A stretch of DNA of 64,000 bases from Rickettsiales bacterium (lineage in GTDB: Bacteria > Pseudomonadota > Alphaproteobacteria > Rs-D84), in assembly GCA_031283185.1 (NCBI GenBank), contig JAITCH010000009.1:1190-65189 (forward strand), read 5' to 3'. Each line of letters starts with the position of its first letter. The stretch's first letter is position 1. The notes beneath the pieces are model-generated. The model had not been told where the DNA came from. It worked only from the letters and a program-made list of their open reading frames with translations, and searched no databases. The position numbers and the translations under genes are program-made. Shown here piece by piece: positions 3,695 to 52,779 of this stretch.

Positions 3695-3875
3695 TTGATT
3701 TCCTTCCTCTGCCAACAAGTCTAGCAAATCAAACCAAGGTCAATCAAGTGAGTTTTATTGCCTAAATATTATTTTGAAACGTTATATGCAGAACTTAAAA
3801 ATTCAAATAATAAAATAATTTTGATTTGCTTTTACATACAGGACAATATAATATAAATATGGAGGAAAGCCAAAT

Positions 3876-8844: not shown

Positions 8845-9718
8845 TTTGATGATCCTTTAATACTTTGCGGAGATAGTCGGCGTATCCGCCGCGCTTGAAC
8901 TTTGCGATTTGCAATTCCATTCCGCATTCGTTGATGAATCCTTTTTCAAGAGCGATTTCTTCGGGACAGGATATTTTTATTCCGCGGGTTTCTTCAATCG
9001 CGCCTATAAAATTTGATGCCAGCATCAGACTTTTTTCCGTGCCTGCGTCAAGCCAAGTCGCGCCATATCCCAAATCCATAGTTTTTAAGCGACCTTCGGC
9101 GAGATATAAATTTGACAGGTCGGTTATTTCATATTCTCCGCGTGCGGATTTTTTAACCTTTTTTGCATATTGTGCGACATCGCCTGGATAACAATAAAGT
9201 CCGATTGCGGCGAAATTTGATTTTGGTTTTGCGGGCTTTTCTTCAATAGAAATTACATTTTTTTGTTTATCAAATTCCACGATACCAAATCGTTGCGGGT
9301 CGCTGACCTTGTATGTAAAAATGGTTGCATGGTTTGGGGTTGCTGAGAGTTTTTTTCCAGTATCGCTAAGGTATCCTGTATGAATTATATTGTCGCCCAA
9401 AATCATTGCAGTCTGTTCGCCGTTTATAAAGTCTTCACCAATAACGAATGCTTGGGCGATACCTTCGGGTTCTGGTTGCTGTGCATATTCAATATGGATA
9501 CCCCATTGCGATCCATCGTGAAGAAGATCGCGGAACATTGGGATGTCGCGCGGAGTTGAAATCAGTAATATATCGCGGATACCGAACATCATTAATGTTG
9601 ATAAAGGGTAATAGATCATCGGCTTGTCATAGACCGGCAGCATCTGTTTAGAGATGGAAAATGTCATAGGGTGAAGACGCGTGTTTAGGCCACCGGCAAG
9701 AATTATGCCCTTATTCAT
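8834..9718 (-). CDS. rmlA: Glucose-1-phosphate thymidylyltransferase
   Basis: MNKGIILAGGLNTRLHPMT... G-x-G-T-R-L signature. Confidence 0.9.
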   Translation of the reverse strand: MNKGIILAGGLNTRLHPMTFSISKQMLPVYDKPMIYYPLSTLMMFGIRDILLISTPRDIPMFRDLLHDGSQWGIHIEYAQQPEPEGIAQAFVIGEDFINGEQTAMILGDNIIHTGYLSDTGKKLSATPNHATIFTYKVSDPQRFGIVEFDKQKNVISIEEKPAKPKSNFAAIGLYCYPGDVAQYAKKVKKSARGEYEITDLSNLYLAEGRLKTMDLGYGATWLDAGTEKSLMLASNFIGAIEETRGIKISCPEEIALEKGFINECGMELQIAKFKRGGYADYLRKVLKDHQNAI

Positions 9719-35189: not shown

Positions 35190-36578
35190 ATGCAAGAAAA
35201 AATAATCGTCAAATCGTTTGGGTGCCGATTGAACACGGCCGAAGGGGAAAAACTGCGAATTGTGGCTGCCCGCGCGGGTCTGACGAGCGCGGTTATTTTT
35301 AATACTTGCGCCGTTACGGCCGAGGCAGAGCGGCAGGCAAAACAAGCGATTCGTAAGACAGCCCGCGAAATGCCGGATATGCCGATATATGTGGTAGGTT
35401 GCGCCGTAGATAATAATTCAGATGAATTCGCCACCCTACCCAATGTCGCCGCCACCATCAAAAACTCCAATAAATTTGATATAGACGCATTTAAGTCCCC
35501 TTCGCTTGTGTCGCGCACAAAAGTCCCCTTCGCTGGCGAAGGGGTGGCACGAAGTGCCGGGGTAGTGGTCAATCGGCCAAATAAAATCCCCCCCCAAAAT
35601 AATAAAGTCATCCCGGGGCTTGACCCCGGGATCTCGCCGAATCATTCTCTTTCCGAATCCATAATCATCCAGTCCTACCCAACTCTCACCAAAGGCTTTG
35701 TGCAAATACAGAACGGCTGCGATCACGCGTGCACATATTGTATAGTGCATAAGTTGCGCGGCAAGTCGCGTAGTTTCCCCTACTCTGCGATTTTGGAACA
35801 AACAAGGCGTTTGGTAGAAAATGGTTATTCTGAAATTGTCCTGACCGGCGTCGACATCGCCAGCTATCAAATAGCGGGTGGGGGTCTCCCGACCCCCACC
35901 CGAACATTTTCTGTGGTTGACCTCATTCGCCAACTCCTAACCGACATCCCCGAAATAAAACGCCTCCGCCTGTCCTCGCTAGACCCGGCAGTGGATTGGA
36001 CGCCCTTATTCCAATTAATGCAAGAAGACTCCCGCGTCCTGCCACATATCCATTTATCAATGCAATCCGGGAGCGATGAGATTTTGCGCCTTATGGCTCG
36101 CCGCCACCGCACCGCAAATTTAATTTCCCCCCAAAATAATAAAGTCATCCCGGTGCTTGACACCGGGATCTCGCCGAATATAACCACCTCCGTCGACATA
36201 ATCTGCGGCTTTCCAGGCGAAACAAAGGAACGATTCGCGGAAACGATTGAAACACTCAAAGCCTTGCGCCCAATAAAGATCCACGCATTTCCATTTTCGC
36301 CGCGCCCCGGAACACCGGCGGCGGACTTCCCCGGCCAAGTCCCACGCGCCACAGCGAAAGAGCGCGTGCGTATATTAAACGACCTCGGCGCGCAGTTTTT
36401 GCACGAATTTATGCAAAGCCGAATCGGTTCAACCGCCCAAGTTCTAATGGAAAATAACAACCTCGGCCGGGATGAACACGACATAGAATGCGCCGTCCCC
36501 GACCTCCCCCACAATACGATTGTTAATGTTGTCCTCACCGACATCCAAAACGGAATATTTATCTGTAAAAAACAATAA
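35190..36578 (+). CDS. Radical-SAM methylthiotransferase (MtaB/MiaB family) carrying three in-frame palindromic-element insertions
   Basis: FGCRLNTAEGE N-domain, radical SAM CDHACTYC, TRAM-like C-terminus. Three inserts read in-frame: KVPFAGEGVARSAGVVVNRPNKIPPQNNKVIPGLDPGISPN, AGGGLPTPTRTF and ISPQNNKVIPVLDTGISPN. Confidence 0.8.
   Translation: MQEKIIVKSFGCRLNTAEGEKLRIVAARAGLTSAVIFNTCAVTAEAERQAKQAIRKTAREMPDMPIYVVGCAVDNNSDEFATLPNVAATIKNSNKFDIDAFKSPSLVSRTKVPFAGEGVARSAGVVVNRPNKIPPQNNKVIPGLDPGISPNHSLSESIIIQSYPTLTKGFVQIQNGCDHACTYCIVHKLRGKSRSFPYSAILEQTRRLVENGYSEIVLTGVDIASYQIAGGGLPTPTRTFSVVDLIRQLLTDIPEIKRLRLSSLDPAVDWTPLFQLMQEDSRVLPHIHLSMQSGSDEILRLMARRHRTANLISPQNNKVIPVLDTGISPNITTSVDIICGFPGETKERFAETIETLKALRPIKIHAFPFSPRPGTPAADFPGQVPRATAKERVRILNDLGAQFLHEFMQSRIGSTAQVLMENNNLGRDEHDIECAVPDLPHNTIVNVVLTDIQNGIFICKKQ
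35500..35640. mobile_element. Palindromic elements inserted in-frame in the methylthiotransferase CDS (insert 1, includes a C8 tract)
   Basis: gtccccttcgctggcgaaggggtggcacgaagtgccggggtagtggtc...atccccccccaaaataataaagtcatcccggggcttgaccccgggatctcgccgaat. Identical units occur intergenically elsewhere. Confidence 0.8.
35872..35912. mobile_element. Terminator-like palindromic element inserted in-frame in the methylthiotransferase CDS (insert 2)
   Basis: gcgggtgggggtctcccgacccccacccgaacattttctg. The same hairpin follows clpB, Slam and other genes. Confidence 0.8.
36118..36182. mobile_element. Palindromic element inserted in-frame in the methylthiotransferase CDS (insert 3)
   Basis: ccccccaaaataataaagtcatcccggtgcttgacaccgggatctcgccgaat, a near-duplicate of the insert-1 tail. 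Confidence 0.8.
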
Positions 36579-39540: not shown

Positions 39541-40245
39541 ATGGCGATTTATTTATCAGGCGACAAGAAAATGACTGGCTTGGTGCGCCAGTATTTGGAT
39601 AACAACAAAAAACTACCCACATCCATTCCGGGTCTGAGGTGGATGTTAAAGCGCGGACTTATTAAGCAAGGCTTACCGACCCGCGAGGTTAATCCGAATA
39701 AAAATCTAGCGGTAATTTGCGATGCGGGGTTAGAACCATTTGACCGCTTCTTTTTTGTGCCGCCCATTCCGTTTATTGCGGACATTCATTTACCGGATGC
39801 GCTCGGACGCGGCCGATATGCGATTGACTGGGAGTTTTATAAAAAGGCAGCGATTATATCGACGGATTCGGACACATTAAGGAAGATTGGTATAGAGCCG
39901 GGATGTCTTATAGAGAAATACGAATTACGGAGTTTGCTTGTGCATAATAAATTGCACAGCATTTGGTTCACGGCGTTGGATGTTTTTTGTCGCAATGCTG
40001 TGCATATCAAGGACTTTAAGTATGAGGATGGCACGGAGAACGAGGCGAATTTCGAAACCAAGCGCGAGATAGTTGCGGGTCTTGCGGCAGAATTTGTTTT
40101 GAATGATTACACGATGTTGTATGAAGGTGTTGATACGGTATTCAGACAATACTGGTATCCACATTTAGAATCCAGCAAAAACATATCATACCTAGACGCA
40201 TTGAAATTTTTAGAATTGAAAGCGTGCAAATGCCCATGCAAATAA
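39541..40245 (+). CDS. Hypothetical protein
   Basis: 234 aa, divergent from the HTH-SDR gene. Ends CKCPCK. Confidence 0.4.
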   Translation: MAIYLSGDKKMTGLVRQYLDNNKKLPTSIPGLRWMLKRGLIKQGLPTREVNPNKNLAVICDAGLEPFDRFFFVPPIPFIADIHLPDALGRGRYAIDWEFYKKAAIISTDSDTLRKIGIEPGCLIEKYELRSLLVHNKLHSIWFTALDVFCRNAVHIKDFKYEDGTENEANFETKREIVAGLAAEFVLNDYTMLYEGVDTVFRQYWYPHLESSKNISYLDALKFLELKACKCPCK

Positions 40246-40249
40246 TTCC

Positions 40250-40870
40250 CCTCCGTGGCTATCGAGCTCAATAGTCCCCTTCGCTGGCGAAGGGGTGGAC
40301 GGCATAGCCGGACGGGGTAGTGGTAATAAGTCATTGCCCGACTTGATCGGGCAATCCCGGCCGAATAAAATTCCCCTCCAAGGCTTGTCTCGCCGTAGCG
40401 AAGCGCAGGCGGATGGCGGGGTGTCTGCGAAGCAGACGGGGTGGTTGGCACTTGTTAATCGCACAAAGTCCCCTTCGCTAGCGAAGGGGTGGACTGCGAA
40501 GCAGGACGGGGTGGTTAGAAAACCCTGCCCCCTAATTTTTTTGTCATCCCCGCGCAGGCGGGAATTGAGCCGTAGAACTAGTTAGATTTCAAGTGGCAAC
40601 GCAGAAATCTTACGAGTTCAAGGCGAACATCCCCCGAAAGGCAATCGCAAACATTTCGGCGCACGCTAACGAAGGGGAATCTCAAATTGTAAAATGCAAA
40701 ATAAAATTCCCCTCCAAGGCTTGTCGCGCCGTAGCGAAGCGTAGGCGGACGGGGTGGTTGGTGCTTGTTAATCGCACAAAGTCCCCTTCGCTGGCGAAGG
40801 GGTGTCCGGCATAGCCGGACGGGGTAGTGGTAATAAAAATAATTTTCCTGCCCCGTTGTCAGGGTGGGGG
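40250..40870. repeat. Array of composite units about 150 nt long
   Basis: The composite unit is: aattcccctccaaggcttgtcgcgccgtagcgaagcgtaggcggacggggtggttgg-cacttgttaatcgcacaaa-gtccccttcgctggcgaaggggtg...cggggtagtggt. It is repeated and interleaved with gtcattgcccgacttgatcgggcaatc and gtcatccccgcgcaggcgggaat. Confidence 0.8.
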
Positions 40871-40873
40871 TAA

Positions 40874-41242
40874 TTATTCCCCCGGAGTCAACGCGAACCT
40901 AGCCTCCAAGGGATCCGCCGATAAAATTTCTATGCGTAATACATCTTTGCCGCGCGAAAACTCTTGTAATTTGGATTCGTCCTTAACTTCTTTCCACCCG
41001 AGACCGCGCAGGGCATCCCGATAGAATCGTTGAAATTGGCGACGGGATACGGAATTGGAAACGACGAATGTTTCGACAATGCGACCCTCTGGCACTGAAA
41101 AGAGGAATCCTTCGTGGTCTGCGGCTTCAAGGCCGTCCTGCATTGGGACATCTTCAAAGTTGGGAAGGAATCCGTTTGCGCGCGCGACACTGGCGACACC
41201 GACCAAGATCAAAAATCCAAATCCAATTAATATCTGTTTCAT
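40874..41242 (-). CDS. Small secreted protein (downstream of the T4SS genes)
   Basis: 122 aa. Signal peptide MKQILIGFGFLILVGVASVARA. Confidence 0.45.
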   Translation of the reverse strand: MKQILIGFGFLILVGVASVARANGFLPNFEDVPMQDGLEAADHEGFLFSVPEGRIVETFVVSNSVSRRQFQRFYRDALRGLGWKEVKDESKLQEFSRGKDVLRIEILSADPLEARFALTPGE

Positions 41243-41254
41243 TTCATACTCCTT

Positions 41255-41420
41255 ATTAATTCCCCTCCAAGGCTTGTCGCGCCGTAGCGAAGCGCAGGCG
41301 GATGGAGGGGTGCCGCCTTAGGCGGCGGGGTGGTTGGTGCTTGTTAATCGCACAAAGTCCCCTTCGCTGGCGAAGGGGTGCGCCCGAAGGGCACGGGGTA
41401 GTGGTCATAGTCCCGCGTCA
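41255..41420. repeat. Composite palindromic unit (same 150-nt family)
   Basis: aattcccctccaaggcttgtcgcgccgtagcgaagcgcaggcggatggaggggtgccgccttaggcggcggggtggttggtgcttgttaatcgcacaaagtccccttcgctggcgaaggggtg... Confidence 0.8.
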
Positions 41421-41478
41421 GCGGGCAATAACCCTCAAATAGACCGCAAACGAAAAATTGGCCTTGCATTTTTTGTCC

Positions 41479-43953
41479 TTACTTCAACGGCGGGAAACAT
41501 GTTTCTTCGTCCCCTTTATTCAGATTGACGCAACATATCTCACTACCATCAGCTTCTTTAACATATTGTTCACCGACTGACGGGCAGCAACCGAAAGCGT
41601 CGGTTTGGCTGCCGTCATCACAGGTTAGTCCTGCGCCGAAAGCGGCGGCGGACTCGGGCTGATTGGGATTGGAAAAGATCTGTTGTTCCAGTGTTGGAAG
41701 TGCGGCGGCTGGTGCAGTGCCGGGCTTCATAATGTTTCCTGCGGCATCGTATTGCAGACCCAGGTATTTATTGTTTCCGTGGGCGTCAAGGTTATTTCCT
41801 GCGGCTTGGGCATTCTGTTGCTGCTGATATGCTTTTTGTTGCGCGACATATTGTGATTCATACATACTTGATTTATCCAAAAATTCTCTAAGAAATGGTG
41901 AGTTTGCATTATATTCAATTTTCCCTGTGGCAGGATTAACATTTGTTCCGCGCACCTGCCCAACCCAATCCGGATCACTGGCTTTGCCTTTAAGAGTCGT
42001 AGCCATTGCTGTTGCATCATCCAAATTAAAGTCTTTGCGCCCTCTATATGAAGTAGGCGTCAAACCTGCCGTTTGATCAATATTGCTCCAATTTACAATA
42101 ATATCTTTATTGGACAGAACTGTGATGCGGGTTCCTGCTGGTATGGTGAATGGAGGCGTCATATTATCCATCATATCAACAAATAATTTCTGCGTTACTT
42201 TGTCCCACGACTTTATAATTTCCTGTTTGGCCAATTCGGACGAACGAAGTTGCCCGCTCTGCGTAACAGTGTTATTGTTCAGGTCGATTTGATTAACAAA
42301 CTTATCAGATATTGGCGCGACAAGATTGACTGCGGCAGGGACAAGTGATGCCGCCATTGGCATAACGATTTGTTCCAAATAATCTGTGGAACCGCGCCCT
42401 GGAATACCCATTCGTCCCTGTGCATCCGCGGAATATACACTTTTATTAGGCAGATAAAATTCCACTCCATCTGGCCGTATCATTTGATACCATTCAACTT
42501 GTATTCTTCCTATGGTCTTATATGGTCCTGGATATTCTGACCCTGTAACAAATCCATAAATAACCGTTCCTGTCGGAATAATTATATTGCGTTCGCTGTC
42601 GGAGAATACATTTCTGTCGACAACCGCACGAACTGGCAGTTCATGTATTCTGGCATCAACACGAATATCACTGACTATTGTTGCTGGTATGGACTTGAAA
42701 GCGCGCATAACGAACTTACGATTAAAAGTTGTTGCCGTAGATATAATTGCATCATTGTTATCAGCAGACAAAGGCTTCAATACACTCTGCTCCTTAGGTT
42801 TTTCAAATGGTCGTCCTGCCGAACCGATTTGCAAACCACCCAAATCCGCTGTTTCAAGTTGTCTTGCCTTGTTGACTGCGCGTGGTACCGAACCAGAACC
42901 ACTCAGTTGCGGGATACCGCCTTTTGATCGGATTGCTCCACGGGTAGAATTGACATGTTCCGCGTCCGAGCCGATTTTTTTATTTTTATCGCGCAGGTCG
43001 TATATAAAGCCGGTTTCTATATTATATTCGCCAGTGGGTTTTTGGCAGTCGTTGTCGGCAAAAGGATGCGCCTTGAAAGTTCCGTTATCCGGGCGAATAA
43101 AGAATGCTTGTTGACCTGACAGGTTGTATCCGACGAAGGCATATTTATAACAATCCTCCACCGCCGAATCAAATGAATAGTCATCTTCTAAATTCCCCGC
43201 CAAGGGTGGCGGGGTGGCGGCATCGCCGCCGGGGTGGTTCGATGTTCCCCCTCCAAGTTGTATTGGCTCCGCAACCGCCGGACTGCTTACCACTTCCTCA
43301 GCATCTGTCATTCCCGCGAAGGCGGGAATCTCAGATTGTTCAGAAACTATCGGCGCAGCCGGCTCCGATGAATTCCCCGCCAAGGGTGGCGGGGTGGCGG
43401 CATTGCCGCCGGGGTGGTTCGACTCATCCGTCGCCTTCACCGACTCCACATTTTCACTTTTAACTTTTGATTCTTCACTCTTAACTCTCAGCGCAATCGG
43501 CACGACGAATTTCTTTGCGGCCTCCGCGGGCGCGCCGACATCGCTGTGTGCGATGATGATTTTTGCATTGCCGCTTTTCGCGCCTTTTGCGGGTTTCCAA
43601 ATCAGGTTAACATTGCAAGGAATTCCAGCGGCGATGCGTTGAAGTCCCGCGCAAGTATTGGTCATAGTCAAACTGGAATCTTTGGATTCCAAAGATACGC
43701 CGTGTATTGCGATTTCCTGTTCAGAAGAAATGACGATGGATTCTTTGACTTCCTGCCCGGATACCGATGCGATGGATATATCAGACGGAGTGGCTTTTAT
43801 GATGGAATTGCTTGCGCCCAGCCCGCCGCCTTTGCCACCTGCGCGTGGTAGGATTACGACTGCGAATATCAGGAGTAGCATTGCGGCGATACCAAGTAGA
43901 GTCCAGCGCAAGTATGCGGGACTAGACTTTTTGATATTCTGAATATATTGCAT
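41479..43953 (-). CDS. Type IV secretion system VirB10/TrbI-like protein (possibly DotG/IcmE-like), with in-frame palindromic-element inserts
   Basis: TM helix. C-terminal IPTGTVIYGFVTGSEYPGPYKTIGRIQVEWYQMIRPDGVEFYL...GIPGRGSTDYLEQ matches the VirB10 beta-barrel domain. Inserts encode EIPAFAGMT and NHPGGDAATPPPLAGN. Start trimmed to MQYIQNIKK at 43953. Confidence 0.65.
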   Translation of the reverse strand: MQYIQNIKKSSPAYLRWTLLGIAAMLLLIFAVVILPRAGGKGGGLGASNSIIKATPSDISIASVSGQEVKESIVISSEQEIAIHGVSLESKDSSLTMTNTCAGLQRIAAGIPCNVNLIWKPAKGAKSGNAKIIIAHSDVGAPAEAAKKFVVPIALRVKSEESKVKSENVESVKATDESNHPGGNAATPPPLAGNSSEPAAPIVSEQSEIPAFAGMTDAEEVVSSPAVAEPIQLGGGTSNHPGGDAATPPPLAGNLEDDYSFDSAVEDCYKYAFVGYNLSGQQAFFIRPDNGTFKAHPFADNDCQKPTGEYNIETGFIYDLRDKNKKIGSDAEHVNSTRGAIRSKGGIPQLSGSGSVPRAVNKARQLETADLGGLQIGSAGRPFEKPKEQSVLKPLSADNNDAIISTATTFNRKFVMRAFKSIPATIVSDIRVDARIHELPVRAVVDRNVFSDSERNIIIPTGTVIYGFVTGSEYPGPYKTIGRIQVEWYQMIRPDGVEFYLPNKSVYSADAQGRMGIPGRGSTDYLEQIVMPMAASLVPAAVNLVAPISDKFVNQIDLNNNTVTQSGQLRSSELAKQEIIKSWDKVTQKLFVDMMDNMTPPFTIPAGTRITVLSNKDIIVNWSNIDQTAGLTPTSYRGRKDFNLDDATAMATTLKGKASDPDWVGQVRGTNVNPATGKIEYNANSPFLREFLDKSSMYESQYVAQQKAYQQQQNAQAAGNNLDAHGNNKYLGLQYDAAGNIMKPGTAPAAALPTLEQQIFSNPNQPESAAAFGAGLTCDDGSQTDAFGCCPSVGEQYVKEADGSEICCVNLNKGDEETCFPPLK
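43190..43460. mobile_element. Palindromic elements inserted in-frame within the VirB10-like CDS
   Basis: aattccccgccaagggtggcggggtggcggcatcgccgccggggtggttcga (two copies) and gtcattcccgcgaaggcgggaatctc. Confidence 0.8.
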
Positions 43954-43974
43954 TACATCCGCCAATTCTATCTC

Positions 43975-44095
43975 TCTAAATTCCCCTTCGCTGGCGAAGG
44001 GGTGTCCGCCTTCGGCGGACGGGGTAGTGGAATTCCCCGCCAAGGGTGGCGGGGTGTCCGGCGTAGCCGGACGGGGTGGTTCGCTACAATTACTC
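43975..44095. repeat. Palindromic elements
   Basis: aattccccttcgctggcgaaggggtgtccgccttcggcggacggggtagtgg; aattccccgccaagggtggcggggtgtccggcgtagccggacggggtggttcg. Confidence 0.8.
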
Positions 44096-44112
44096 GCCAG
44101 GATTTTTTGTCA

Positions 44113-45624
44113 TTACTGAATCCTCACCACATTGCACGCAGTGTTCTGGAACTTGGAAAGTTTCTCACACAACTGCTGCGCTTCATCAATGGACGACAGC
44201 GGACCTACTCGCAACCGATATAACCGCCCTGCGGACGCGCTGGTTCCAAGCGGCCCCACGCCTTGTTCATCAACGGCGAAGAACACTTTGGACGCATATG
44301 GTCCCAAAATACCTTGTCCGCCACCAGCCGAGAAATTCGCCAATAATTTATTCCAGTATTCGCTGAGTGCCTTGACCGAGGTGTCGGATTGAAGTTCAAC
44401 GGCGACACCTTTTTGATTGCTGGCGATTATCGGGACATCTCGGTTTGGCAAGTATGCTCCGGCGGTCAGGCGCGGCGCGGCTCCACCACTGCCGATAAAG
44501 GCATCGTGATCGGTTCCACCACCGCCGCCACCCATCATCATCACGGGCGCGCCATACATAGACGAAGTATCAATAGTTCCATACATCATATTTTGATCCA
44601 TCATCATTCCGCCGCCCATATAGGCATTGTTCAACGAAGTGTTGGAATTCATGCGTTGCATAACATTTGCCTCGGCAAGTGCCATCACGGACGCGGAGTC
44701 GGATATAAGGAATGGCTTGGCGCGTTTCTTTATGCAAACTAACCGCTGACCAGAGCGCAAGACCATATCGCCAACTGCTTCAACTATCAGCAAGCGGCCA
44801 TCGGGGCCATCAGTGCGGAATCCGACCGGGGATTCGCCGCCCTCTATTAATACGCTAACGACTGGCCGTTGAGTCATTGCGATTACCTTGTCGCCGAAAT
44901 CAATGTAAGTGAAAATTCGGTCGCGCCATACGCGTTCCGGGGCGATGACATAGTCGTCTGGGTTGGGGACGAAGATGTCGAGGTCAAAGCGGAATTCGGA
45001 CGGGTCGATTTTCATACTTTTTATCCAACCATAGTCTTCGCCATCAAAGCTGACTGCCGGGGCGGAAGATTTGCCTTTGTTGATTAATGACTTGCTGCCG
45101 AATCCGTTTGAGCCATTAGAGCCGCCGGATATAAGACCCTGACGACCTTCAATGGTTATGTCGACTTGCGAGTATGTTATTTCGGACGCGTTTGCGGGTT
45201 CCGAGCGAAGATAGAAAACATACTTGTTTCCAGATTTTCCTTCAACGATCATATTGGTATCCGAACCTTGATTTTCTGCCTTTGGAGAAATAGATATGGT
45301 TCGTTTTCCAGTCAAATTATTTAGGAATTCGAATAGCGCATTGTTTCCGATAATGGCATCTGCGATTTCCTCACCTTCTGGAAGATTGATTATTGTTACC
45401 ATACCTTGGCGTAGGCGGATTGTCAAAATTGTTCCTGGCGACCAAGATAGTTGTGCATATCCGGGGCGGGACGAACCGGCGGCCATATTGGCTTCGGGAT
45501 TATCCCAAGCATTTTGGACACCGAATTCGTTGGCCATTGCGTTTGACGCGGCGAATAGCATAACCGCCACCATTAACATTGCCGTCAATTCCCCTCCGAA
45601 TAAAATCTTTTTAACTTTCATCAT
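44113..45624 (-). CDS. VirB9/TrbG-like (possibly DotH/IcmK-like) secretion protein with Gly/Met-rich linker and C-terminal SPOR-like domain
   Basis: Signal peptide. Central beta-rich domain. GGGMMMDQNMMYG...MMMGGGGGG low-complexity linker. C-terminal RLYRLRVGPLSSIDEAQQLCEKLSKF is SPOR-like. Confidence 0.5.
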   Translation of the reverse strand: MMKVKKILFGGELTAMLMVAVMLFAASNAMANEFGVQNAWDNPEANMAAGSSRPGYAQLSWSPGTILTIRLRQGMVTIINLPEGEEIADAIIGNNALFEFLNNLTGKRTISISPKAENQGSDTNMIVEGKSGNKYVFYLRSEPANASEITYSQVDITIEGRQGLISGGSNGSNGFGSKSLINKGKSSAPAVSFDGEDYGWIKSMKIDPSEFRFDLDIFVPNPDDYVIAPERVWRDRIFTYIDFGDKVIAMTQRPVVSVLIEGGESPVGFRTDGPDGRLLIVEAVGDMVLRSGQRLVCIKKRAKPFLISDSASVMALAEANVMQRMNSNTSLNNAYMGGGMMMDQNMMYGTIDTSSMYGAPVMMMGGGGGGTDHDAFIGSGGAAPRLTAGAYLPNRDVPIIASNQKGVAVELQSDTSVKALSEYWNKLLANFSAGGGQGILGPYASKVFFAVDEQGVGPLGTSASAGRLYRLRVGPLSSIDEAQQLCEKLSKFQNTACNVVRIQ

Positions 45625-46252
45625 TTGAACTATGCTCCTCGGTTGCCGTATCAAGGTTTTCGATTCTGTAATCTGCTACTTGCACTCCAAAGGGGTTATC
45701 CAGTCGGTCATTCCAACGAATGTTCCTGCTGTCTTCAAAGTGTAGTTTCAGTATTATTGTAGCCTCTTCTTGGGTGGTGTGTCCAGCGACAAGTTCCTTT
45801 ATTTTTCGGACACGGATTGCGTATCGGTCTTGCCCTCGGGGCGTTGGATTTTCAAGGAAAACTATACGCGTAGTCCAGAATGGTTCAGCGGCCAGGACTT
45901 CCTTTGTCAAGGGTTCTGCGGAGAATTCACGAAAAACTTCTGATGTTGACCAGGCGCGAACACGGCCTGTCATACCCCAGCGGCGGGACATAGTGCGCGA
46001 TGATGGGTAGACGCTGAGGCGTTCGACGACATATTGGCGGATGAAGTTTTGTTTGAATAGCTCTAGGTTTTTGGCGTCTGGGTAGTATGGGGCGACGGCT
46101 ATGTAGCGTTCAGATTCTGCGGCGAAGAAGACTTGTTTTTTAACGAGCGGGAATAGTCCGTCGAGTGTTGCCCACAGGACGAATATGACGACGAGTTGGG
46201 CTGCGAGTGCAAAGCCCATGATACGGGACATAATGAATCCCGGAGTAATCAT
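45611..46252 (-). CDS. Type IV secretion VirB8/DotI-like protein
   Basis: N-terminal TM helix, then NTF2-like domain ending in ...NPFGVQVADYRIE (compare the VirB8 C-terminal NPLGFQVTSYR). Confidence 0.65.
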   Translation of the reverse strand: MITPGFIMSRIMGFALAAQLVVIFVLWATLDGLFPLVKKQVFFAAESERYIAVAPYYPDAKNLELFKQNFIRQYVVERLSVYPSSRTMSRRWGMTGRVRAWSTSEVFREFSAEPLTKEVLAAEPFWTTRIVFLENPTPRGQDRYAIRVRKIKELVAGHTTQEEATIILKLHFEDSRNIRWNDRLDNPFGVQVADYRIENLDTATEEHSSNDES

Positions 46253-46324: not shown

Positions 46325-46510
46325 TAAAAATTCCCCACTTTTCTTTTGTCATTCCCGCGCAGGCCGGGATATTTGTAATAAGTCATTGCCCGACTTGATC
46401 GGGCAATCTCGGCAAAAAATTCCCCTCCAAGGCTTGTCGCGCCGTAGCGAAGCGCAGGCGGATGGAGGGGTGTCGCGCCGTAGCGAAGCGCAGGCGGACG
46501 GGGTGGTTAG
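46325..46510. repeat. Palindromic element array
   Basis: tgtcattcccgcgcaggccgggat; gtcattgcccgacttgatcgggcaatc; aattcccctccaaggcttgtcgcgccgtagcgaagcgcaggcgga (two copies)...ggggtggtt. Confidence 0.8.
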
Positions 46511-46524
46511 AAAATTTTCTCACC

Positions 46525-47310
46525 TTATTTAACTGTTATCCCAATTTTTTCCATAGAGGCCTTAAAGTTGGCAAGGTCCTGTTCCCATTTATCAATCAGT
46601 TCCTTTTTCTTTTCAGGCGGGAGTTTCATATTATCATCATCCGCCACCCATTTAGCTGATTGTTCTAAAAGCTCTTTCATCCTCTCATCAAAATAACTTT
46701 GATTCCATTCTGTATTTGACTTTTGAGCCTGCTCGGTTTGATTCTGATTGTCTGCTTGCTCTGTGCTTTCCGAAGCTTTCGCCTGACAATCCGACCATCC
46801 GCTCTTTTGGCAAACTTGGACTTTGTCGTCTTGGCAACTTCCACCATAAGTATTCTTATTTTTAGAGCCGTGCCCAAAAACATTTTTACCATCATCAAAC
46901 CTAACATCGCAGCAGTGATATACTTTTTTGCCATCCTCTGGAATACATTTTTTTGCACCCGCATCCTCGGCCTGTTTCAATATTTTTTCTATTTTTTTAC
47001 TATCTTTATCGTTCGCCCCACTTTCCGAGGAAACTTTTGCCTTTTTATTATTTTTACATCCTGCTTTTTTGTTTTCGAAGAAAACATCTTTTTGAGACTT
47101 GCATTCTAACACTTTATTGAATTCTGTCCTTAACTGTTCGGGACTAACATTGTCGCCAAGAAGAATGTCAAAAGATGTTGGACTCTTATCTCTCAATTCT
47201 TTTAACAAATCTTTGGTATCTCTCATGTCTTCTGCAGATGCCGGATATGCTATACCTAGGCATAATGACGAAATAATAATGGAGCGAAATAATGCGCGCA
47301 TTTTCAACAT
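46525..47310 (-). CDS. Secreted lysine-rich cysteine-motif protein (CC...WSDC family)
   Basis: Signal peptide MLKMRALFRSIIISSLCLGIAYPASA. YHCCDVRFDDG...SGWSDCQAK motif shared with the 811-aa neighbour. Confidence 0.6.
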   Translation of the reverse strand: MLKMRALFRSIIISSLCLGIAYPASAEDMRDTKDLLKELRDKSPTSFDILLGDNVSPEQLRTEFNKVLECKSQKDVFFENKKAGCKNNKKAKVSSESGANDKDSKKIEKILKQAEDAGAKKCIPEDGKKVYHCCDVRFDDGKNVFGHGSKNKNTYGGSCQDDKVQVCQKSGWSDCQAKASESTEQADNQNQTEQAQKSNTEWNQSYFDERMKELLEQSAKWVADDDNMKLPPEKKKELIDKWEQDLANFKASMEKIGITVK

Positions 47311-49739
47311 TTTCTCTCATCTCCGCTTTGAATGGCATTTATCTCACATTGTATTGATTTCAATATCTCTTTTATTTCTATCTGTGTCTGAACCAAAACT
47401 TCGCTATAACCTTCATCATCCGCATCTGTCGGGTCGTCCTTTTTATTCGGCTCATTGCTATCTTTTTGTGTCTTGCATTCCGACCAACCATCTTTAAGGC
47501 AATGGCTTTGCTGACCGGATTCGCATTTTCCATTTTTATCAACGGCCCTGCCATTTATACCAAGAATATCTCCAGTTTTGCGAGAATATAACCAAGCACC
47601 AATAACTGGTCCATCCGTAGTAATAATCGCCAAATCCCCTTCTTTTAATTTTGAATTGCAGCAATACATATCTCCGCTTTCATTTGGCATTGGATCGGCA
47701 AAACAGTGTTCTAAATCCTCATTAGCTTTTTTTCTAAGCTCTTCCGCAGCGGCTATTTTTTGTTTATCTTTTTCTTCCGCTTTCGGAGTTTTGGAAGAAC
47801 ATCCCGTCCAGCCGTCTTTTGCACAATAATTCTTACTTCCCTCGTTGCACTTATCTGCATTTATATCATAGTCAATAGTTGCATTATTTTTATATTCACT
47901 AAGCCATTTTGTGCAATTTTTACCATTTTGGTCACAAACCTTTTCTTCTTTAAGATCAGAGTTGCAACAATAATATTCTCCAACCTGCTGTCCTTTGTTA
48001 TTTTTCAGCTGAATACATTTTTTAGTCATTGCCTGTGCTTTGGATTCATTGGATTGTTCACAGTCTGACCAATGAGATTTGAAACCACCTCTGCCAGAAC
48101 CGACACATTTGCGCTCATATCCATTTTTTTCACAGATGTCTCGGGCTTCCCCGATTTTATTATAAGATATATATGCTTTAAGTTCGGCTCGAATTTCATC
48201 ATATTTTTTATCTTTTATTCCGCAACACTCATACACATAATATTCGTCCGGACGGTCATTTTGGTAGCCTGCCGCCAGACAAACTCCCCCATCTATATCC
48301 GCCTTAAATTCTTTTTCTAATTTTTCATCCTTTGCTATATTTTTTTGCAAATCTTTAATTTCTTTATCTAATTTTTTTTGTTTATCTTCACACTTTGACC
48401 ATTTGCCGCCGCTTTGACAAGTCCGTTCTTGATCTTCGCTCTTGCAATTCGTTTGGTCCACACCACCCGTCCGAATATCTTTAATTGGATATGCTCCGGC
48501 TATTAATGACACTCCTTCATCTTGACTTAAATCACAGCAGAAATGGTAAATATCGCTATCCTTTCCTTTTACGCATTTATTTTTAAGTATTTTTTCAAGA
48601 TCTGCTTCTTTTTGATTTTGTCCCTTGGTATTTTTGCAATCCGACCATTTCCATTCTCCACCATAAGATGAATTTCCAGTATCGGAGGTATCTGCGACGG
48701 CACTTCCTCCTTGATACATACAAGTTCTTTCTTGTCCTTCATAGTTGCAATCTATTTTATTGCTTTTGCCTTGTTTATATGTTTGCGCCAATCCTGCAAA
48801 TTTTTCACCGCAGCAATGGGTTTTCCCATCAAGACCTTTCTTGCACGATTGCGAGTTTGCGAATTGTTCTCTTTTGTTCGCATCGTTCTTTGCTTGATTT
48901 TCAACTGCTATTCTGTCTTTCTCTGCTTGTATTTTCGCAGCCTCGTCTGCCTTTCGTTTGTCCTCAGCTACTTTGGCCAGTCGCACAAGTTCTTTATCTT
49001 CCTTGCATACCCATGTTTGGGATTCGCAAGTTAATGCCGCTGTATTTTTGCAAAAAGTATCTTTTGGATCGGTCAGAATTCCGCCGTTTCCAATTTGCAT
49101 AACCACCCTTCCGAGACCTAATTCTAGCCTTGTCCAATGATGCCCCACGCCAATTCCACAACAAGTATAAGAGCCGGATGTTAATTCTTTGCATTTTTGG
49201 TCGGCTTTCATTTTCTTTATTTCGTTTTCGTTTTCCGCTTTTGTTCTGGCAGCTTGGCTTGCTTGCTGTGATGCTTGGTTTGCTGCTGCGGAATCGGCGG
49301 CGGAAAAATTGGAATTTGCGGCTGCGGCACCTTGATTATCATCTCTCGCACGATTGACCTGTTGTTCTGATTTTACTGGGCACGAACAAATTACGGATTT
49401 TCTGTCGGCCGATCCTGATCTAGACTCACAATATTTTTCTAAAATTTGTTTTCGCCAAGCATCCTCAGCCATTGAGAATTTAGTATATTCTTCTATTACT
49501 GCTCTTGATGGATATTTATCTGTTTCACTTTTTTCTAATGAAATTTGTTTTCCACATTCAGCAAATGCGATCGCCTGGGAAATTTGTAAATTCAGAGTTA
49601 AAAAAACAAAGGCAGAGCAAAATAACCTAATAGAGTTTATAGGTGTGTGTGTGTGTGTGTGTGTAGGTTTCTGCCATTTTTCATTGTCTCGCCTGTTTTT
49701 CTTATGTCTAATTATATCAGATTCCAATCCTATTTCCAA
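47304..49739 (-). CDS. Large secreted repetitive lysine-rich cysteine-motif protein (HxCC...WSxC repeats); 5' end runs through an (AC)11 tract
   Basis: Signal peptide LFCSAFVFLTLNLQISQAIAFA immediately 3' of the THTHTHT-encoding (AC)11 tract. Repeated HCCGEK/HFCCDL/YECCGI/YYCCNS/MYCCNS and WSDC/WSKC/WTGC/WSEC motifs. The track start is a TTG overlapping the -35 box, so the true start is uncertain (see findings). Confidence 0.6.
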   Translation of the reverse strand: MEIGLESDIIRHKKNRRDNEKWQKPTHTHTHTPINSIRLFCSAFVFLTLNLQISQAIAFAECGKQISLEKSETDKYPSRAVIEEYTKFSMAEDAWRKQILEKYCESRSGSADRKSVICSCPVKSEQQVNRARDDNQGAAAANSNFSAADSAAANQASQQASQAARTKAENENEIKKMKADQKCKELTSGSYTCCGIGVGHHWTRLELGLGRVVMQIGNGGILTDPKDTFCKNTAALTCESQTWVCKEDKELVRLAKVAEDKRKADEAAKIQAEKDRIAVENQAKNDANKREQFANSQSCKKGLDGKTHCCGEKFAGLAQTYKQGKSNKIDCNYEGQERTCMYQGGSAVADTSDTGNSSYGGEWKWSDCKNTKGQNQKEADLEKILKNKCVKGKDSDIYHFCCDLSQDEGVSLIAGAYPIKDIRTGGVDQTNCKSEDQERTCQSGGKWSKCEDKQKKLDKEIKDLQKNIAKDEKLEKEFKADIDGGVCLAAGYQNDRPDEYYVYECCGIKDKKYDEIRAELKAYISYNKIGEARDICEKNGYERKCVGSGRGGFKSHWSDCEQSNESKAQAMTKKCIQLKNNKGQQVGEYYCCNSDLKEEKVCDQNGKNCTKWLSEYKNNATIDYDINADKCNEGSKNYCAKDGWTGCSSKTPKAEEKDKQKIAAAEELRKKANEDLEHCFADPMPNESGDMYCCNSKLKEGDLAIITTDGPVIGAWLYSRKTGDILGINGRAVDKNGKCESGQQSHCLKDGWSECKTQKDSNEPNKKDDPTDADDEGYSEVLVQTQIEIKEILKSIQCEINAIQSGDERKC

Positions 49740-51357: not shown

Positions 51358-51600
51358 TTAAAACAAATTTTTAACAAGTGCCAAAATTTCTTTCTGAGGA
51401 ATTCCTAGTGCTTTGCATACATCTATCAGTTCCACGACATCCAGTCGTCTATCCTTGACTTCAAATCTTGAAACATAAGATCGGGGCACTTTTAAGATCT
51501 CGGCCAATTGGCGTTGAGTTATACCTTTGGCTATGCGAAAACTTACCACTTGTTTAATCAAGTGTTTATATCTGTCATCAAAAATCGTTTTTGCCCTCAT
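51358..51600 (-). CDS. XRE-family helix-turn-helix transcriptional regulator
   Basis: 80 aa. ITQRQLAEILKVPRSYVSRFE HTH. Confidence 0.7.
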   Translation of the reverse strand: MRAKTIFDDRYKHLIKQVVSFRIAKGITQRQLAEILKVPRSYVSRFEVKDRRLDVVELIDVCKALGIPQKEILALVKNLF

Positions 51601-51747
51601 AATGAGGACATACTACTCGTCTTGACTTATGCACTCATATTGCGGGCGAATTGTATTGACCGCGTTGGAATAAAAACCTATAATTGCACTCAATATGCGG
51701 GCATACCGCCCCATATAAACTTAATAACAAAACCAAAGGATTGTAAA

Positions 51748-52779
51748 ATGAAAAAGTTAATTTTGTTATTACCATTTATGCTTGCCTCCTGTGGTGGAGG
51801 CTTGTTCAGCTATCCCAATGATCCCAACAAACTTCCGCAAATTTCAAGGGTAAGCACGGCAACGGCGGCCAACAATGCGAAAATAACAGGAATGGTGTCC
51901 GAGATAGGCGTTGATACCGAAGGCAATCATACCAATTTGGCGCGTTCTGCATCCGGCACGGCCAATATAAGTGGCAAGACATATAAATTATACAGATTAG
52001 ATGACGCCAATTTCAAGGCTGCAATGGGCAATGGAAAGCCCGACACAATGAAATTTGTTATTGATAAGAACGGAAAAATAACTGGCATTCATTTTGTTGA
52101 AGAAGCCGTTTTCAAAGGCGAATTGAAACGACAAAATGACACAGGCAATTTTATAGTTAACGCGGCGGCGAACGGAAATGCGACAGGTTCTTTTGCTTAT
52201 GACAGCATTGGGAAACAACTTGGACTTTCGTATTCAGATTTTGGAACGATGACTTTCAACGGATCTGTTGGCGGAGAAAATTTTACCAATGTCAAAGTTC
52301 CTTTTGCTGGCGGATATGAAATAAAAAAAATTAACAAAGGCGATATTGCCGGCGAAGCAAAATTTACAGGACGAGCCATAGGATATATTGAAGCACAAGG
52401 CCAGGGTCTGCACAACCTTATCCCTGCGAGCGCAAAAAATGCCACTCTTACATTTAACGCGGGCAAGGAAACCTTGGAAGCGAATTTCAGCAACTGGTAT
52501 GATGTGAAGATTAGCACATTTGCCTACAATGATATTTCCGTGCAGTTTATCGGCAACGGGAAAAACGCGCCACAGGCATATAAAGATGGTTTTACTACAA
52601 ATGAAGGCGATGTCAGATATTTTGACACAAACTATTATGGCGACAAAAAAATCCCAAGCGAAGCCACGGCATTATTTGAGTATAGCGTTCTAGCGACAGA
52701 ACAAAATGGCGCGCCTCGGAACGACCCGAATTATGATTGGAATTTGACGCTTGGTTTTGGCGGAACAAGAACTCAATAA
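51748..52779 (+). CDS. Surface lipoprotein (TbpB/fHbp-like beta-barrel lipoprotein; putative Slam substrate)
   Basis: Lipobox MLASCGGG. LSYSDFGTMTF and AKFTGRAIGY motifs typical of Slam-dependent surface lipoproteins. Stop codon abuts the next gene's ATG. Start trimmed from the track ORF. Confidence 0.55.
   Translation: MKKLILLLPFMLASCGGGLFSYPNDPNKLPQISRVSTATAANNAKITGMVSEIGVDTEGNHTNLARSASGTANISGKTYKLYRLDDANFKAAMGNGKPDTMKFVIDKNGKITGIHFVEEAVFKGELKRQNDTGNFIVNAAANGNATGSFAYDSIGKQLGLSYSDFGTMTFNGSVGGENFTNVKVPFAGGYEIKKINKGDIAGEAKFTGRAIGYIEAQGQGLHNLIPASAKNATLTFNAGKETLEANFSNWYDVKISTFAYNDISVQFIGNGKNAPQAYKDGFTTNEGDVRYFDTNYYGDKKIPSEATALFEYSVLATEQNGAPRNDPNYDWNLTLGFGGTRTQ

Follow-up and report, generated by a model that had tools for sequence, protein, structure and literature searches.

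An isolated VirB8-VirB9-VirB10 triad with a SPOR-bearing VirB9, the probable core of a scattered chromosomal type IV secretion system in an alphaproteobacterial lineage

Three genes lie side by side on the minus strand of a 64-kb stretch of DNA from an uncultured alphaproteobacterium of the termite gut (the whole stretch is referred to here as the window), and their products resemble VirB8, VirB9 and VirB10 of type IV secretion systems (T4SS). The locus raises the question of what such a minimal set would build in the cell envelope, and of where the ATPases that would energize it might be encoded.

A reading made from the sequence alone (the sequence-only reading) had described three co-directional ORFs of 213, 513 and 854 aa flanked by repeat arrays, and both statements are borne out by the ORF listing of the window and by the palindromic elements located on either side of the genes. 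The locus is composed as follows:
46525..49739, minus strand: two adjacent secreted Cys-rich proteins of 261 and 811 aa, upstream of the triad
46348..46512, plus strand: palindromic elements upstream of virB8, from the repeat search
45611..46252, minus strand: virB8-like gene; longest ORF 213 aa, NCBI model 206 aa with start M8
44113..45654, minus strand: virB9-like gene; ORF 513 aa, probable start M11 at 45624
43980..44088, plus strand: two palindromic elements filling the virB9-virB10 intergenic space
41479..44043, minus strand: virB10-like gene; 854 aa as annotated, probable true start ATG at 43953 (824 aa)
41252-41410: palindromic elements between virB10 and the 122-aa ORF, flanking the genes
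40874..41242, minus strand: 122-aa ORF with a signal peptide, downstream of virB10, a lineage-restricted companion
40238..40870, plus strand: downstream palindromic array with families D1, D2, D3, D6, D7 and D9

The start of VirB9 is probably M11, since the Logan gene call is 503 aa long. The likely start of virB10 is the ATG at 43953, because the annotated TTG lies inside a repeat and the homologues begin at the equivalent of M31; the intergenic elements thus generate a spurious N-terminal extension of the annotated protein. Intact orthologous triads were identified in four other metagenomic contigs (L001, L002, L004 and L006), always amid housekeeping genes.

The VirB8-like protein consists of an N-terminal transmembrane helix followed by a periplasmic NTF2-like VirB8 domain, for which the Pfam match (PF04335) exceeds its cut-off by a small margin (25.4 versus 23.2 bits, E 1.4e-5). 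The C-terminal motif NPFGVQVADYR, already noticed from the letters of the sequence, was found at aa 186-196 and aligns with NPLGFNVTSYR of Brucella VirB8. A family profile searched against the PDB matched nine solved VirB8/TrwG sequences with E values from 3.5e-7 to 6e-3, including those of Bartonella, Brucella and R388 (3.5e-7 to 1.6e-3). Orthologues in the four contigs and in L014 are 29-63% identical, and a tblastn comparison of the triads in the four contigs gave 30-64%.

The VirB9-like protein is 58-70% identical by tblastn and 62-74% in the MAFFT alignment to its orthologues in the four contigs, with an almost invariant C-terminal VirB9 domain. Its order of parts is a signal peptide, an N-terminal domain (aa 45-170), a C-terminal domain (aa 215-312), a helix (aa 320-337), a disordered linker and a SPOR domain. 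The Pfam CagX/VirB9 family (PF03524) was matched at 76.3 bits against a cut-off of 34.2 (E 3.8e-21), the PDB profile search led to TrwF/VirB9, and both VirB9 domains were modeled by AF2 with pLDDT above 90. In Foldseek the best matches were Xanthomonas VirB9 (6gyb_B, E 4e-17), R388 TrwF (8rt6_B, 5.5e-16) and DotH (8e-12), with the C-terminal domain of pKM101 TraO also among them, and per-domain TM scores were 0.78-0.82 for the N-terminal and 0.6-0.8 for the C-terminal domain. The Met/Gly-rich linker and the C-terminal SPOR domain described earlier were both recovered:
44428..44625, minus strand: Met/Gly-rich low-complexity linker of VirB9, about aa 344-409, pLDDT below 50 and predicted to be disordered
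44116..44421, minus strand: SPOR domain at the C-terminus of VirB9, aa 412-513, from Pfam, AF2 and Foldseek

Across orthologues the linker is always rich in M, G, Q and P and variable in length and sequence. The Pfam SPOR match (PF05036, 27.6 bits versus a cut-off of 21, E 3.6e-6, aa 472-510) spans just the second half of the profile; the AF2 model has the complete beta-alpha-beta-beta-alpha-beta fold (pLDDT 75-95), and it superposes on the SPOR domain of RlpA (6i09) with a TM score of 0.76 and an rmsd of 3.1 in Foldseek. The domain is retained in all VirB9 orthologues and in the VirB9 of a more distant operon (L105, see below), and it was found in 25 of the 150 best library representatives. 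Two cysteines in it, C496 and C507, are invariant and recall the pair in the SPOR domain of FtsN, which has a disulphide. The SPOR domain is an unusual addition to VirB9 that is predicted to bind the peptidoglycan of the cell wall, and the literature that could be searched contained no SPOR fusion to a secretion-system core protein.

The VirB10-like protein is more divergent (35-49% identity among the orthologous triads), and its modules, several of them additional, are these:
43474..43806, minus strand: Ig-like (ASH/PapD-type) beta-sandwich domain, aa 80-190, extra and periplasmic
43153..43473, minus strand: variable acidic/Pro-rich linker, aa 191-297, pLDDT below 35
43371-43422, 43307-43340 and 43191-43242: three in-frame palindromic inserts within this linker, aa 208-225, 235-246 and 268-285
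42949..43152, minus strand: second small beta domain, aa 298-365, AF2 pLDDT 70-82
42100..42693, minus strand: TrbI/VirB10 C-terminal beta-barrel, aa 451-648, from Pfam, PDB search, alignment, AF2 and Foldseek
41485..41628, minus strand: C-terminal six-cysteine motif, aa 806-853, C-x10-CC-x(14-20)-CC-x(8-10)-CFPP

The sequence-only reading had regarded this protein as over-long, with a recognizable barrel and palindromic inserts, and each of these features was confirmed. The barrel was matched by Pfam TrbI/VirB10 (PF03743) at 69.1 bits against a cut-off of 35 (E 5.9e-19, aa 451-648), and the inserts, which belong to repeat families D4 and D6, are missing from all six homologues. In NCBIfam, ComB10 (NF038092, 56.5 bits) and VirB10 (56.1 bits) were matched at scores far below their curated cut-offs (300 bits for NF038092), and since the scores against the canonical VirB9 and VirB10 equivalog models are both far below cut-off, the system must be considered very divergent. 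A single-sequence PDB search gave ComB10 as the only significant match (2.9e-5), the family profile gave CagY (1.9e-7), and Foldseek gave CagY, TrwE, TraF, Xanthomonas VirB10 and ComB10 with E values between 3e-8 and 1e-5 (3e-8 to 1e-6 for the first four). Two antenna helices are predicted in the barrel (aa 553-575 and 597-626), the loop that joins them (FVNQIDLNNNTVTQSG) is almost invariant, and the model confidence of the barrel is just 45-68 in pLDDT.

Among the added modules, the Ig-like domain (pLDDT 80-88, conserved Cys pair C131 and C143) resembles in Foldseek the VesB/VesC Ig domain, MSP, the CEP192 SPD-2 domain and Hydin-type ASH domains, and it is kept in the family and in the distant VirB10 of L132. 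The small beta domain, with invariant C298 and C333, likewise recurs in the VirB10 of L132. A Gln-rich helix (aa 716-748) precedes the six-cysteine tail (pLDDT 59-76), in which C808, C819, C820, C837, C838, C849 and the FPP residues are invariant in all seven family members and for which no match was found in the PDB or Pfam.

The VirB8, VirB9 and VirB10 identities proposed earlier are thus upheld by Pfam scores above cut-off and PDB profile searches, and by fold matches for VirB9 and VirB10. The sequence-only reading had named failure of the VirB9 and VirB10 profile searches as grounds for giving it up; these searches were run and both succeeded. A Dot/Icm type IVB assignment was rejected: no DotI-, DotH- or DotG-type profile in Pfam or NCBIfam matched the three proteins at E values up to 1, and DotH was the third-best fold match, the best overall being Xanthomonas VirB9, R388 TrwF/TrwE, pKM101 TraF and CagY. 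The earlier suggestion that the protein sizes fall between type IVA and Dot/Icm type IVB carries no weight, since sequence and fold group the proteins with P-type/IVA systems.

It might be supposed that a conjugative or effector T4SS was lost here and that the triad is its decaying, now functionless residue, as its isolated position, the repeats inside virB10 and the low profile scores would allow. However, at least five genomes with sequence differences of 30-65% each have all three ORFs uninterrupted and complete in length, with long invariant blocks, and the virB10 inserts are in frame and confined to the disordered linker, which makes decay very improbable. A 60% identical counterpart of the 122-aa ORF, which belongs to no Pfam or NCBIfam family, occurs at the equivalent position only in L004 and L005; this ORF lies within the interval that the sequence-only reading covered and was not mentioned there. 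The Cys-rich pair (3.4% Cys in the 261-aa and 5.5% in the 811-aa protein, both with signal-peptide-like N-termini) are weak paralogues of each other (blastp E 5e-4), and they had been put forward as associated components or substrates. No homologues of them were found beside the triad in the four contigs, and an HMM of the VirB10 Cys tail does not match them; there is therefore no evidence for either role, and the pair was judged to be outside the conserved module.

No VirB4, VirB11 or VirD4 ATPase was detected in the 64-kb window, either by Pfam on most ORFs of at least 150 aa or by tblastn with Agrobacterium and lineage-specific VirB3, VirB4, VirB11 and VirD4 queries, in agreement with what had been read from the sequence. 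Within 10 kb of the triad in the four other contigs, VirB4, VirB11, VirD4, VirB6 and VirB2/3 were likewise not found, VirD4 was present in none of the loci examined, and the accessions of the three annotated triad-bearing MAGs (MDR2685505, MDR0449000 and MCL2017220) are far from all 15 of the named VirB11 accessions compared.

In related genomes such ATPases are present as separate genes. Termite and gut MAGs (L049, L108 and L109) contain a solitary virB11, whose products share 76-89% identity across more than 120 clusters. L083 and L131 contain a pair of virB3 and virB4, and the VirB4 sequences share at least 80% identity, again across more than 120 clusters. In L131 the pair is located directly upstream of rmlACDB; the window has an rmlACDB cluster without virB3-virB4 upstream. 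The ClpB of the window is 68-69% identical to that of Ca. Enterousia and Hadza-gut MAGs, its RmlA, RmlD and RmlB are 55-66% identical to those of L131, and the hairpin repeats are shared. By these sequence comparisons, the window genome is related to the ATPase-bearing gut alphaproteobacterial lineages (Ca. Enterousia/Rs-D84-like).

The solitary ATPase bears the NCBI label 'Flp pilus assembly ATPase TadA', and the VirB9 and VirB10 of L132 are preceded by two proteins whose N-termini resemble those of type IV pilins. Both observations could be taken to favor membership in a Tad/Flp, type II or type IV pilus system, a reading of negligible probability given that the folds are those of VirB9 and VirB10 and that the solitary ATPase scores best in NCBIfam as VirB11 (TIGR02788, 145 bits) and not as Tad. 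For the three window genes themselves it is refuted, as no Tad, T2SS or T4P family was matched in Pfam or NCBIfam and the folds are of T4SS type.

A link between the triad and the separate ATPases is offered by the contiguous operon of L105/L106, which encodes VirB8, a second VirB8, VirB9-SPOR, a large protein (1.7-2.2 kaa), VirB10 and VirB11. Its VirB9 shares 45% identity with the VirB9 of the window, and between its VirB11 and the solitary VirB11 of the lineage the identity is 52%. Given this kinship to both sets, it is plausible on sequence grounds that the triad and the lineage ATPases derive from one ancestral operon.

The absence of ATPases could instead be taken at face value, the ATPases having been lost or never present and the complex acting as a trans-envelope scaffold tied to peptidoglycan, or as a passive conduit through the outer membrane, for instance where the cell attaches to a partner or engages in exchange with it. 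This agrees with the isolation of the triad in every contig examined, with 64 kb devoid of ATPases, with the distance of the compared VirB11 accessions from the triad-bearing MAGs and with the rml neighborhood of the window; the SPOR domain, the Ig-like domain and the Cys tail look like structural elaborations, and VirB9 is more conserved than a decaying relic would be expected to be. However, few proteins of the related gut lineages are as conserved as VirB4 and VirB11, the VirB9-SPOR relatives in L105/L106 keep an adjoining virB11, the ATPase match lists, taken to the best 120 entries, were filled by other species, and we know of no ATPase-free role for any VirB8/9/10 set, so that a core without ATPases appears unlikely.

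We favor, at a probability of about 0.65, the reading in which the triad is the core of a chromosomal P-type T4SS powered by ATPases encoded elsewhere in the genome, and most likely a single islet within a dispersed T4SS resembling the Rickettsiales vir homolog (rvh) system. VirB8 would act as a bitopic inner-membrane assembly subunit, and VirB9 and VirB10 would jointly build the outer-membrane core complex. By homology to solved complexes, one helix of VirB10 would anchor in the inner membrane, the chain would span the periplasm, and the antenna helices would line the outer-membrane pore. The SPOR domain on its flexible Met/Gly tether most likely pins the complex to peptidoglycan and may take the place, as an anchor, of the VirB7 lipoprotein, for which the locus has no gene, and VirB10 carries two extra disulphide-containing periplasmic beta domains and the conserved six-cysteine tail. 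By itself the triad cannot drive transport; the ATPases it would need (VirB4 together with VirB3, plus VirB11) are most likely carried as separate solitary genes elsewhere in the genome. That they are present in the triad's own genome, like any statement on what is secreted, is something we infer.

Another arrangement with dispersed genes is known from Helicobacter, in which the comB genes B8-B9-B10 are separate from B2-B3-B4. The triad might accordingly be ComB8-ComB9-ComB10 of a DNA-uptake T4SS with a separate virB3-virB4 ATPase and no need of a coupling protein. Taking up DNA would fit the life of a gut organism with a reduced genome, VirD4 is in none of the loci examined, and ComB10 is both the sole significant single-sequence PDB match and the nominal top NCBIfam match. 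However, its NCBIfam score is tied with that of VirB10, both being far below cut-off, and the family profile favors CagY. ComB systems are not known to have VirB11, whereas the lineage holds a highly conserved VirB11 and the sister operon in L105 includes virB11; neither ComB6 nor ComB7, nor any comB6/7-like ORF, was found at the locus. A competence function is thus unlikely.

A broader and tentative extension of the scattered T4SS, improbable on present evidence, is that it is a near-essential, universally retained contact organelle of the gut clade in which VirB9-SPOR, instead of VirB7, pins the outer-membrane core to peptidoglycan. If so, these reduced-genome and probably partner-dependent gut alphaproteobacteria (Rs-D84/Enterousia-like bacteria and termite relatives) would possess an organelle for contact-dependent interaction with other cells, on which VirB10 presents conserved modules rich in disulphides. 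Taken to its extreme, this reading would have the genomes that carry the triad lack ATPases altogether, with the core forming a passive junction across the envelope.

Among known systems, the rvh T4SS is characterized by duplicated VirB8, VirB9 and VirB4, multicopy VirB6 and the absence of VirB5 (PMC11077975), and the first of these hallmarks, duplicated VirB8, is found in the sister operon of L105. Like rvh, the triad is chromosomal and non-mobile, has the order B8-B9-B10, belongs to parts scattered among housekeeping genes, resides in a reduced-genome alphaproteobacterium and is without VirB5 and VirB7 at the locus. The rvh islets comprise virB8-virB9-virB10-virB11-virD4 and a separate virB3-virB4-virB6; here, in contrast, virB11 and virD4 are not attached to virB10, with which the operon ends ahead of the 122-aa ORF and repeats, so that the layout would represent a further fragmented rvh, with virB11 split from virB10. 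Within the window there are one VirB8, one VirB9, no VirB5 and no VirB6. To our knowledge, no canonical rvh VirB9 or VirB10 has a SPOR domain, an Ig-like domain or a Cys tail.

The ComB system of H. pylori (2bhv) shares a B8-B9-B10 unit apart from B3-B4 and provides the best single-sequence PDB match, and it differs in that the lineage of the triad keeps VirB11 and has the extra domains, the likeness being no higher than that to VirB10 or CagY. The H. pylori Cag core (6x6k, 6odi and 8cb2) also has enlarged VirB9 and VirB10 proteins, with CagX about the size of the present VirB9 and CagY the best fold and profile match for the VirB10 barrel; however, no cag island, CagY repeat region or Cag3/CagT/CagM is present here, and the SPOR, ASH-like and Cys-tail additions differ from the Cag elaborations. 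The SPOR proteins FtsN, DamX, DedD and RlpA (6i09) share the fold and the Pfam family match with the VirB9 domain, but they are divisome or cell-wall factors, whereas here the domain is fused to a secretion-system core protein.

Of the full systems found, the L105/L106 operon comes closest; it is also chromosomal, by yidC/rnpA/dnaA, and its TrbI domain is 28-31% identical to that of the window. Unlike the window triad it has a giant extra gene and virB11 still attached, and in its VirB10 (about 1400 aa) beta-flower repeats stand where the window protein has the ASH-like domain and the Cys tail. The P-type cores of pKM101 (TraN/O/F, 3jqo), R388 (TrwH/F/E, 7o3j and 8rt6) and Xanthomonas (VirB7/9/10, 6gyb) differ from the triad in having a VirB7 lipoprotein, compact VirB9 and VirB10 proteins and contiguous operons that include the ATPases. 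They nevertheless provide the mechanistic template, with both VirB9 domains and the VirB10 barrel and antenna helices superposing on them.

The conserved module of this locus consists of exactly three minus-strand genes, encoding VirB8-, VirB9- and VirB10-like proteins, for which the ORF listing bears out all coordinates and sizes of the sequence-only reading.

46252..45611, minus strand: virB8-like gene
45654..44113, minus strand: virB9-like gene
44043..41479, minus strand: virB10-like gene
46525-49739, minus strand: two secreted Cys-rich proteins (261 and 811 aa), upstream of the three genes

The assignments made from sequence were also upheld, as each protein scored above the Pfam curated cut-off in searches with the VirB8, CagX/VirB9 and TrbI/VirB10 profiles, and the SPOR-like domain proposed for the C-terminal end of VirB9 was found by Pfam. 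The triad proteins are nevertheless very divergent, since their top NCBIfam matches (VirB9, VirB10 and ComB10) all fell far under the equivalog cut-offs. Profiles built from the orthologues matched solved VirB8 structures of Bartonella, Brucella and R388, TrwF and Xanthomonas VirB9, and CagY and ComB10, respectively. The alternative that these genes belong to a Tad or type II secretion system was ruled out. The VirB10-like protein (MDR2685505.1) is annotated as hypothetical by NCBI, and IMG uses the names VirB8 and VirB10-like. Scans for promoters and terminators found sites no more often than in shuffled sequence.

The triad was identified in the same order in four other metagenomic contigs (L001, L002, L004, L006), where no other type IV secretion (T4SS) genes lie within 10 kb and the neighbours are dnaX, PBP1a, M23/LysM peptidase, clpB and similar genes; a further VirB8 orthologue is located at the end of a rumen MAG tile. 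VirB9 is the best conserved component (58-70% identity between orthologues), followed by VirB8 (30-64%) and VirB10 (35-49%). The restriction of the module to three genes follows from its flanks, as a 122-aa downstream ORF is common only to the nearest relative and the upstream Cys-rich proteins are not conserved beside it. The latter are paralogues of each other that matched no known family, with about six repeats centred on an aromatic-x-CC motif in the 811-aa protein and one such unit in the 261-aa protein. Their suggested role as associated components found no support, as they do not stand beside the triad elsewhere and are unrelated to the VirB10 tail: CC dipeptides occur in both, and an HMM of the tail failed to match either neighbour. 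Large proteins encoded upstream in L001 and L002 were considered as homologues of the 811-aa protein and gave no blastp match to it.

The fusion of a SPOR domain to VirB9 extends beyond the genome of the window, being kept in every VirB9 orthologue and shared with the VirB9 encoded by a more distant operon. In an AlphaFold model built from 36 sequences (mean pLDDT 74), two confident beta-sandwich domains align structurally with the VirB9 proteins of Xanthomonas (E 4e-17), R388 (5.5e-16) and pKM101. They are followed by a disordered Met/Gly-rich segment (aa 344-409) and a terminal beta-alpha-beta-beta-alpha-beta domain that matches the SPOR domain of RlpA (TM 0.76). When 1.84 billion cluster representatives were searched exhaustively with HMMER, no more than 473 relatives emerged at E <=1e-3, of which 83 at E <=1e-30, with the SPOR domain in 25 of the 150 best representatives; these sequences make up a small, distinct VirB9 subfamily. 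Literature searches did not find a VirB9-SPOR fusion.

The AlphaFold model of VirB10 has low overall confidence (mean pLDDT 52), and even so its barrel matches CagY, TrwE, TraF, Xanthomonas VirB10 and ComB10. Residues 80-190 (pLDDT 80-88) make up an N-terminal periplasmic domain with an Ig-like fold, an ASH/PapD-type sandwich with matches to VesB, MSP, CEP192 and Hydin. In an alignment of seven family members, a transmembrane helix comes first, then the Ig-like domain, whose Cys pair is conserved, and an acidic linker that varies between members; a second, small beta domain, in which the Cys pair is invariant, leads on to the TrbI barrel, a Gln-rich helix and a Cys motif. Across these seven proteins the inter-helix loop of the barrel antenna, FVNQIDLNNNTVTQSG, is near-invariant, and the C-terminal end carries an invariant C-x10-CC-x(14-20)-CC-x(8-10)-CFPP. 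Palindromic repeats encode SNHPGG(N/D)AATPPPLAGN (twice) and IPAFAGMTD in the VirB10 of the window; among the seven aligned proteins such peptides are confined to this one, and within it to the disordered linker, so that the in-frame inserts mark which part of VirB10 tolerates added sequence. The annotated TTG start falls inside two further palindromic elements and the homologues start at the equivalent of M31; the true start is therefore likely to be the ATG at 43953.

At least six families of short palindromic repeats are spread across the window (1-64000), with the following examples.

13809, 20563, 25585, 27856, 34722, 35525: palindromic repeats (plus strand for 58/59 copies overall)
40273-40870, 46348-46512, 58338-59088, 63184-63700: further palindromic repeats

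All copies but one share the plus orientation regardless of the strand of neighbouring genes, and cumulative GC skew falls along this same strand; taken together, these two features suggest that repeat orientation depends on replication, as it does in elements that move in single-stranded form. A MiaB/RimO-like radical-SAM gene (35190-36578, plus strand) also contains in-frame repeat-encoded peptides (PFAGEGV..., IPPQNNKVIPGLDPGISPN and ISPQNNKVIPVLDTGISPN), its product being 462 aa long versus 397 aa for the orthologue in L002. The phenomenon matches that seen in virB10, and the inserts of both genes recall the palindromic elements of Rickettsia. Repeat families D2 and D6 are specific to the genome of the window, and the window-specific repeat GCCGTAGCGAAGCGYAGGCGGA gave 20 unrelated single matches in metagenome contigs. 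A 20-nt hairpin core, CCCCTTCGCTRGCGAAGGGG, is common to many gut alphaproteobacterial MAGs, and a scan of genome contigs for it gave 98 tiles, drawn from numerous other gut MAGs, and none from this contig. The hairpin was also observed in eight tiles (L007, L016, L017, L060, L068, L080, L093, L102) of the termite MAG 'Deferribacteraceae bacterium TD116_bin76', which may mean that this genome was mis-binned or mislabelled, or that the element spread independently.

The window lies within a 194,574-bp MAG contig labelled 'Rickettsiales bacterium' by NCBI (locus tags LBB23_018xx), and a copy of the VirB8 gene is present in run SRR14710906. Termite-gut metagenomes supplied the closest relatives; ClpB identity is 83-85% with two termite-gut contigs and 68-69% with Ca. 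Enterousia and human-gut alphaproteobacterial MAGs. On these grounds the host is probably a relative of the reduced-genome gut order Rs-D84 (GTDB). Gut alphaproteobacteria of this type have genomes of ~0.7-1.6 Mb with most biosynthesis missing, and dependence on partner cells has been proposed for them. A genomic survey (PMC12306168) does not mention secretion systems, and literature searches for T4SS in Rs-D84 turned up nothing relevant.

Several other genes of the window were noted. A G+C-rich region (58%) at 2-3739 on the minus strand, missing from the ORF listing, codes for a secreted protein of at least 1246 aa that continues past the left edge of the window, with Cys-rich repeats (CPAGxYC ... 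C.AGTWS) and no Pfam match. A C-5 cytosine DNA methyltransferase (230 bits) and an overlapping downstream 190-aa ORF (3876-5394, plus strand) are possibly a restriction-modification pair. At 51508-54120 (plus strand), a lipoprotein-like 423-aa ORF with a LASCGGG lipobox directly precedes a gene for a surface-lipoprotein translocon of the Slam type (SlipAM 97 bits, plus TPR); in this gut alphaproteobacterium the two may form a Slam/substrate pair. The window contains only one tRNA gene and no match to Rfam families.

As the sequence-only reading had stated, nothing in the window resembles VirB4, VirB11 or VirD4, by Pfam scans of most ORFs of 150 aa or more and by tblastn, nor was any likeness to VirB6 or VirB2/3 detected; at the locus and in the window there was no polytopic membrane protein representing VirB2 or VirB6, and no small minus-strand ORF with the lipobox of a VirB7-like lipoprotein. 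Tiles sharing the hairpin repeat included L049, from a 'Rickettsiales bacterium' MAG of termite origin, with a solitary virB11, and L083/L131, from a gut MAG of a farm animal, with a virB3-virB4 pair; each ATPase gene stands alone amid housekeeping genes. Among curated families, their products score best with VirB11 (TIGR02788) and VirB4 (TIGR00929) rather than Tad. Across the best 120 clusters of more than 1000 hits each, identity is 76-89% for VirB11 and at least 80% for VirB4; between species these ATPases (76-89%) are more conserved than ClpB (68-69%, window versus those lineages). Accession comparison of named VirB11 proteins gave no ATPase from the three annotated triad-bearing MAGs, the best-120 lists being saturated with other species. 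In MAG KA0040-166 (L131, 9708-16355), rmlA-rmlC-rmlD-rmlB is immediately preceded by virB3-virB4 and a gene for a secreted protein of 203 aa. The same rml cluster occurs at 6489-9718 of the window (55-66% identity for RmlA, RmlD and RmlB), preceded by glycosyl and methyl transferase genes instead of virB3-virB4. It is likely that VirB4 is encoded elsewhere in the triad-bearing genome.

The nearest contiguous system, found in L105/L106, encodes VirB8, VirB8, VirB9-SPOR, a giant protein, a beta-flower VirB10 and VirB11. As its VirB9 is 45% identical to that of the window and its VirB11 52% identical to the solitary lineage VirB11, it is plausible that the triad and the solitary virB11 derived from one operon. 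Its VirB10 is ~1400 aa long with beta-flower repeats, and the membrane-anchored protein of 1726-2195 aa encoded between VirB9 and VirB10 (L105 3412-9999, L106 804-5984) has no known domains. In another distant locus (L132, 6835-9535), two proteins (463 and 435 aa) whose N-termini resemble those of type IV pilins (e.g. GGTLIETIVAL) are encoded just upstream of a VirB9-SPOR/VirB10 pair that VirB8 does not adjoin.

By homology to solved core complexes, VirB8 would nucleate assembly at the inner membrane, VirB9 would form rings around VirB10, and VirB10 would be anchored in the inner membrane and cross the periplasm, its antenna helices lining an outer-membrane pore. Tethered flexibly by ~65 residues, the SPOR domain would bind peptidoglycan beneath the complex; it may replace the missing VirB7 lipoprotein or, alternatively, may steer the machine towards regions where denuded glycan is abundant. 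A location in the periplasm or at the cell surface would fit the extra domains with their disulphides, and transport would require VirB4 at minimum. VirB9-SPOR represents a natural experiment on the position of the outer-membrane core relative to peptidoglycan and on the replaceability of VirB7. A T4SS core surviving genome reduction would be a concrete candidate for touching, feeding on or killing other cells, as would VirB4 and VirB11 of the related genomes.

Compared with known systems, a type IVB identity of the triad was rejected. Its split operon resembles ComB and its enlarged core proteins resemble Cag, but the defining features of either are absent. The layout is also like that of the Rickettsiales vir homolog (rvh), whose hallmarks used for comparison include component duplications (PMC11077975), but the triad does not form the contiguous B8-B11-D4 islet of rvh. 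The triad components are themselves ordinary, and the points of interest are the SPOR fusion, the additions to VirB10 and the probable extreme scattering of the system in a gut lineage that has been little studied and may depend on partner cells.
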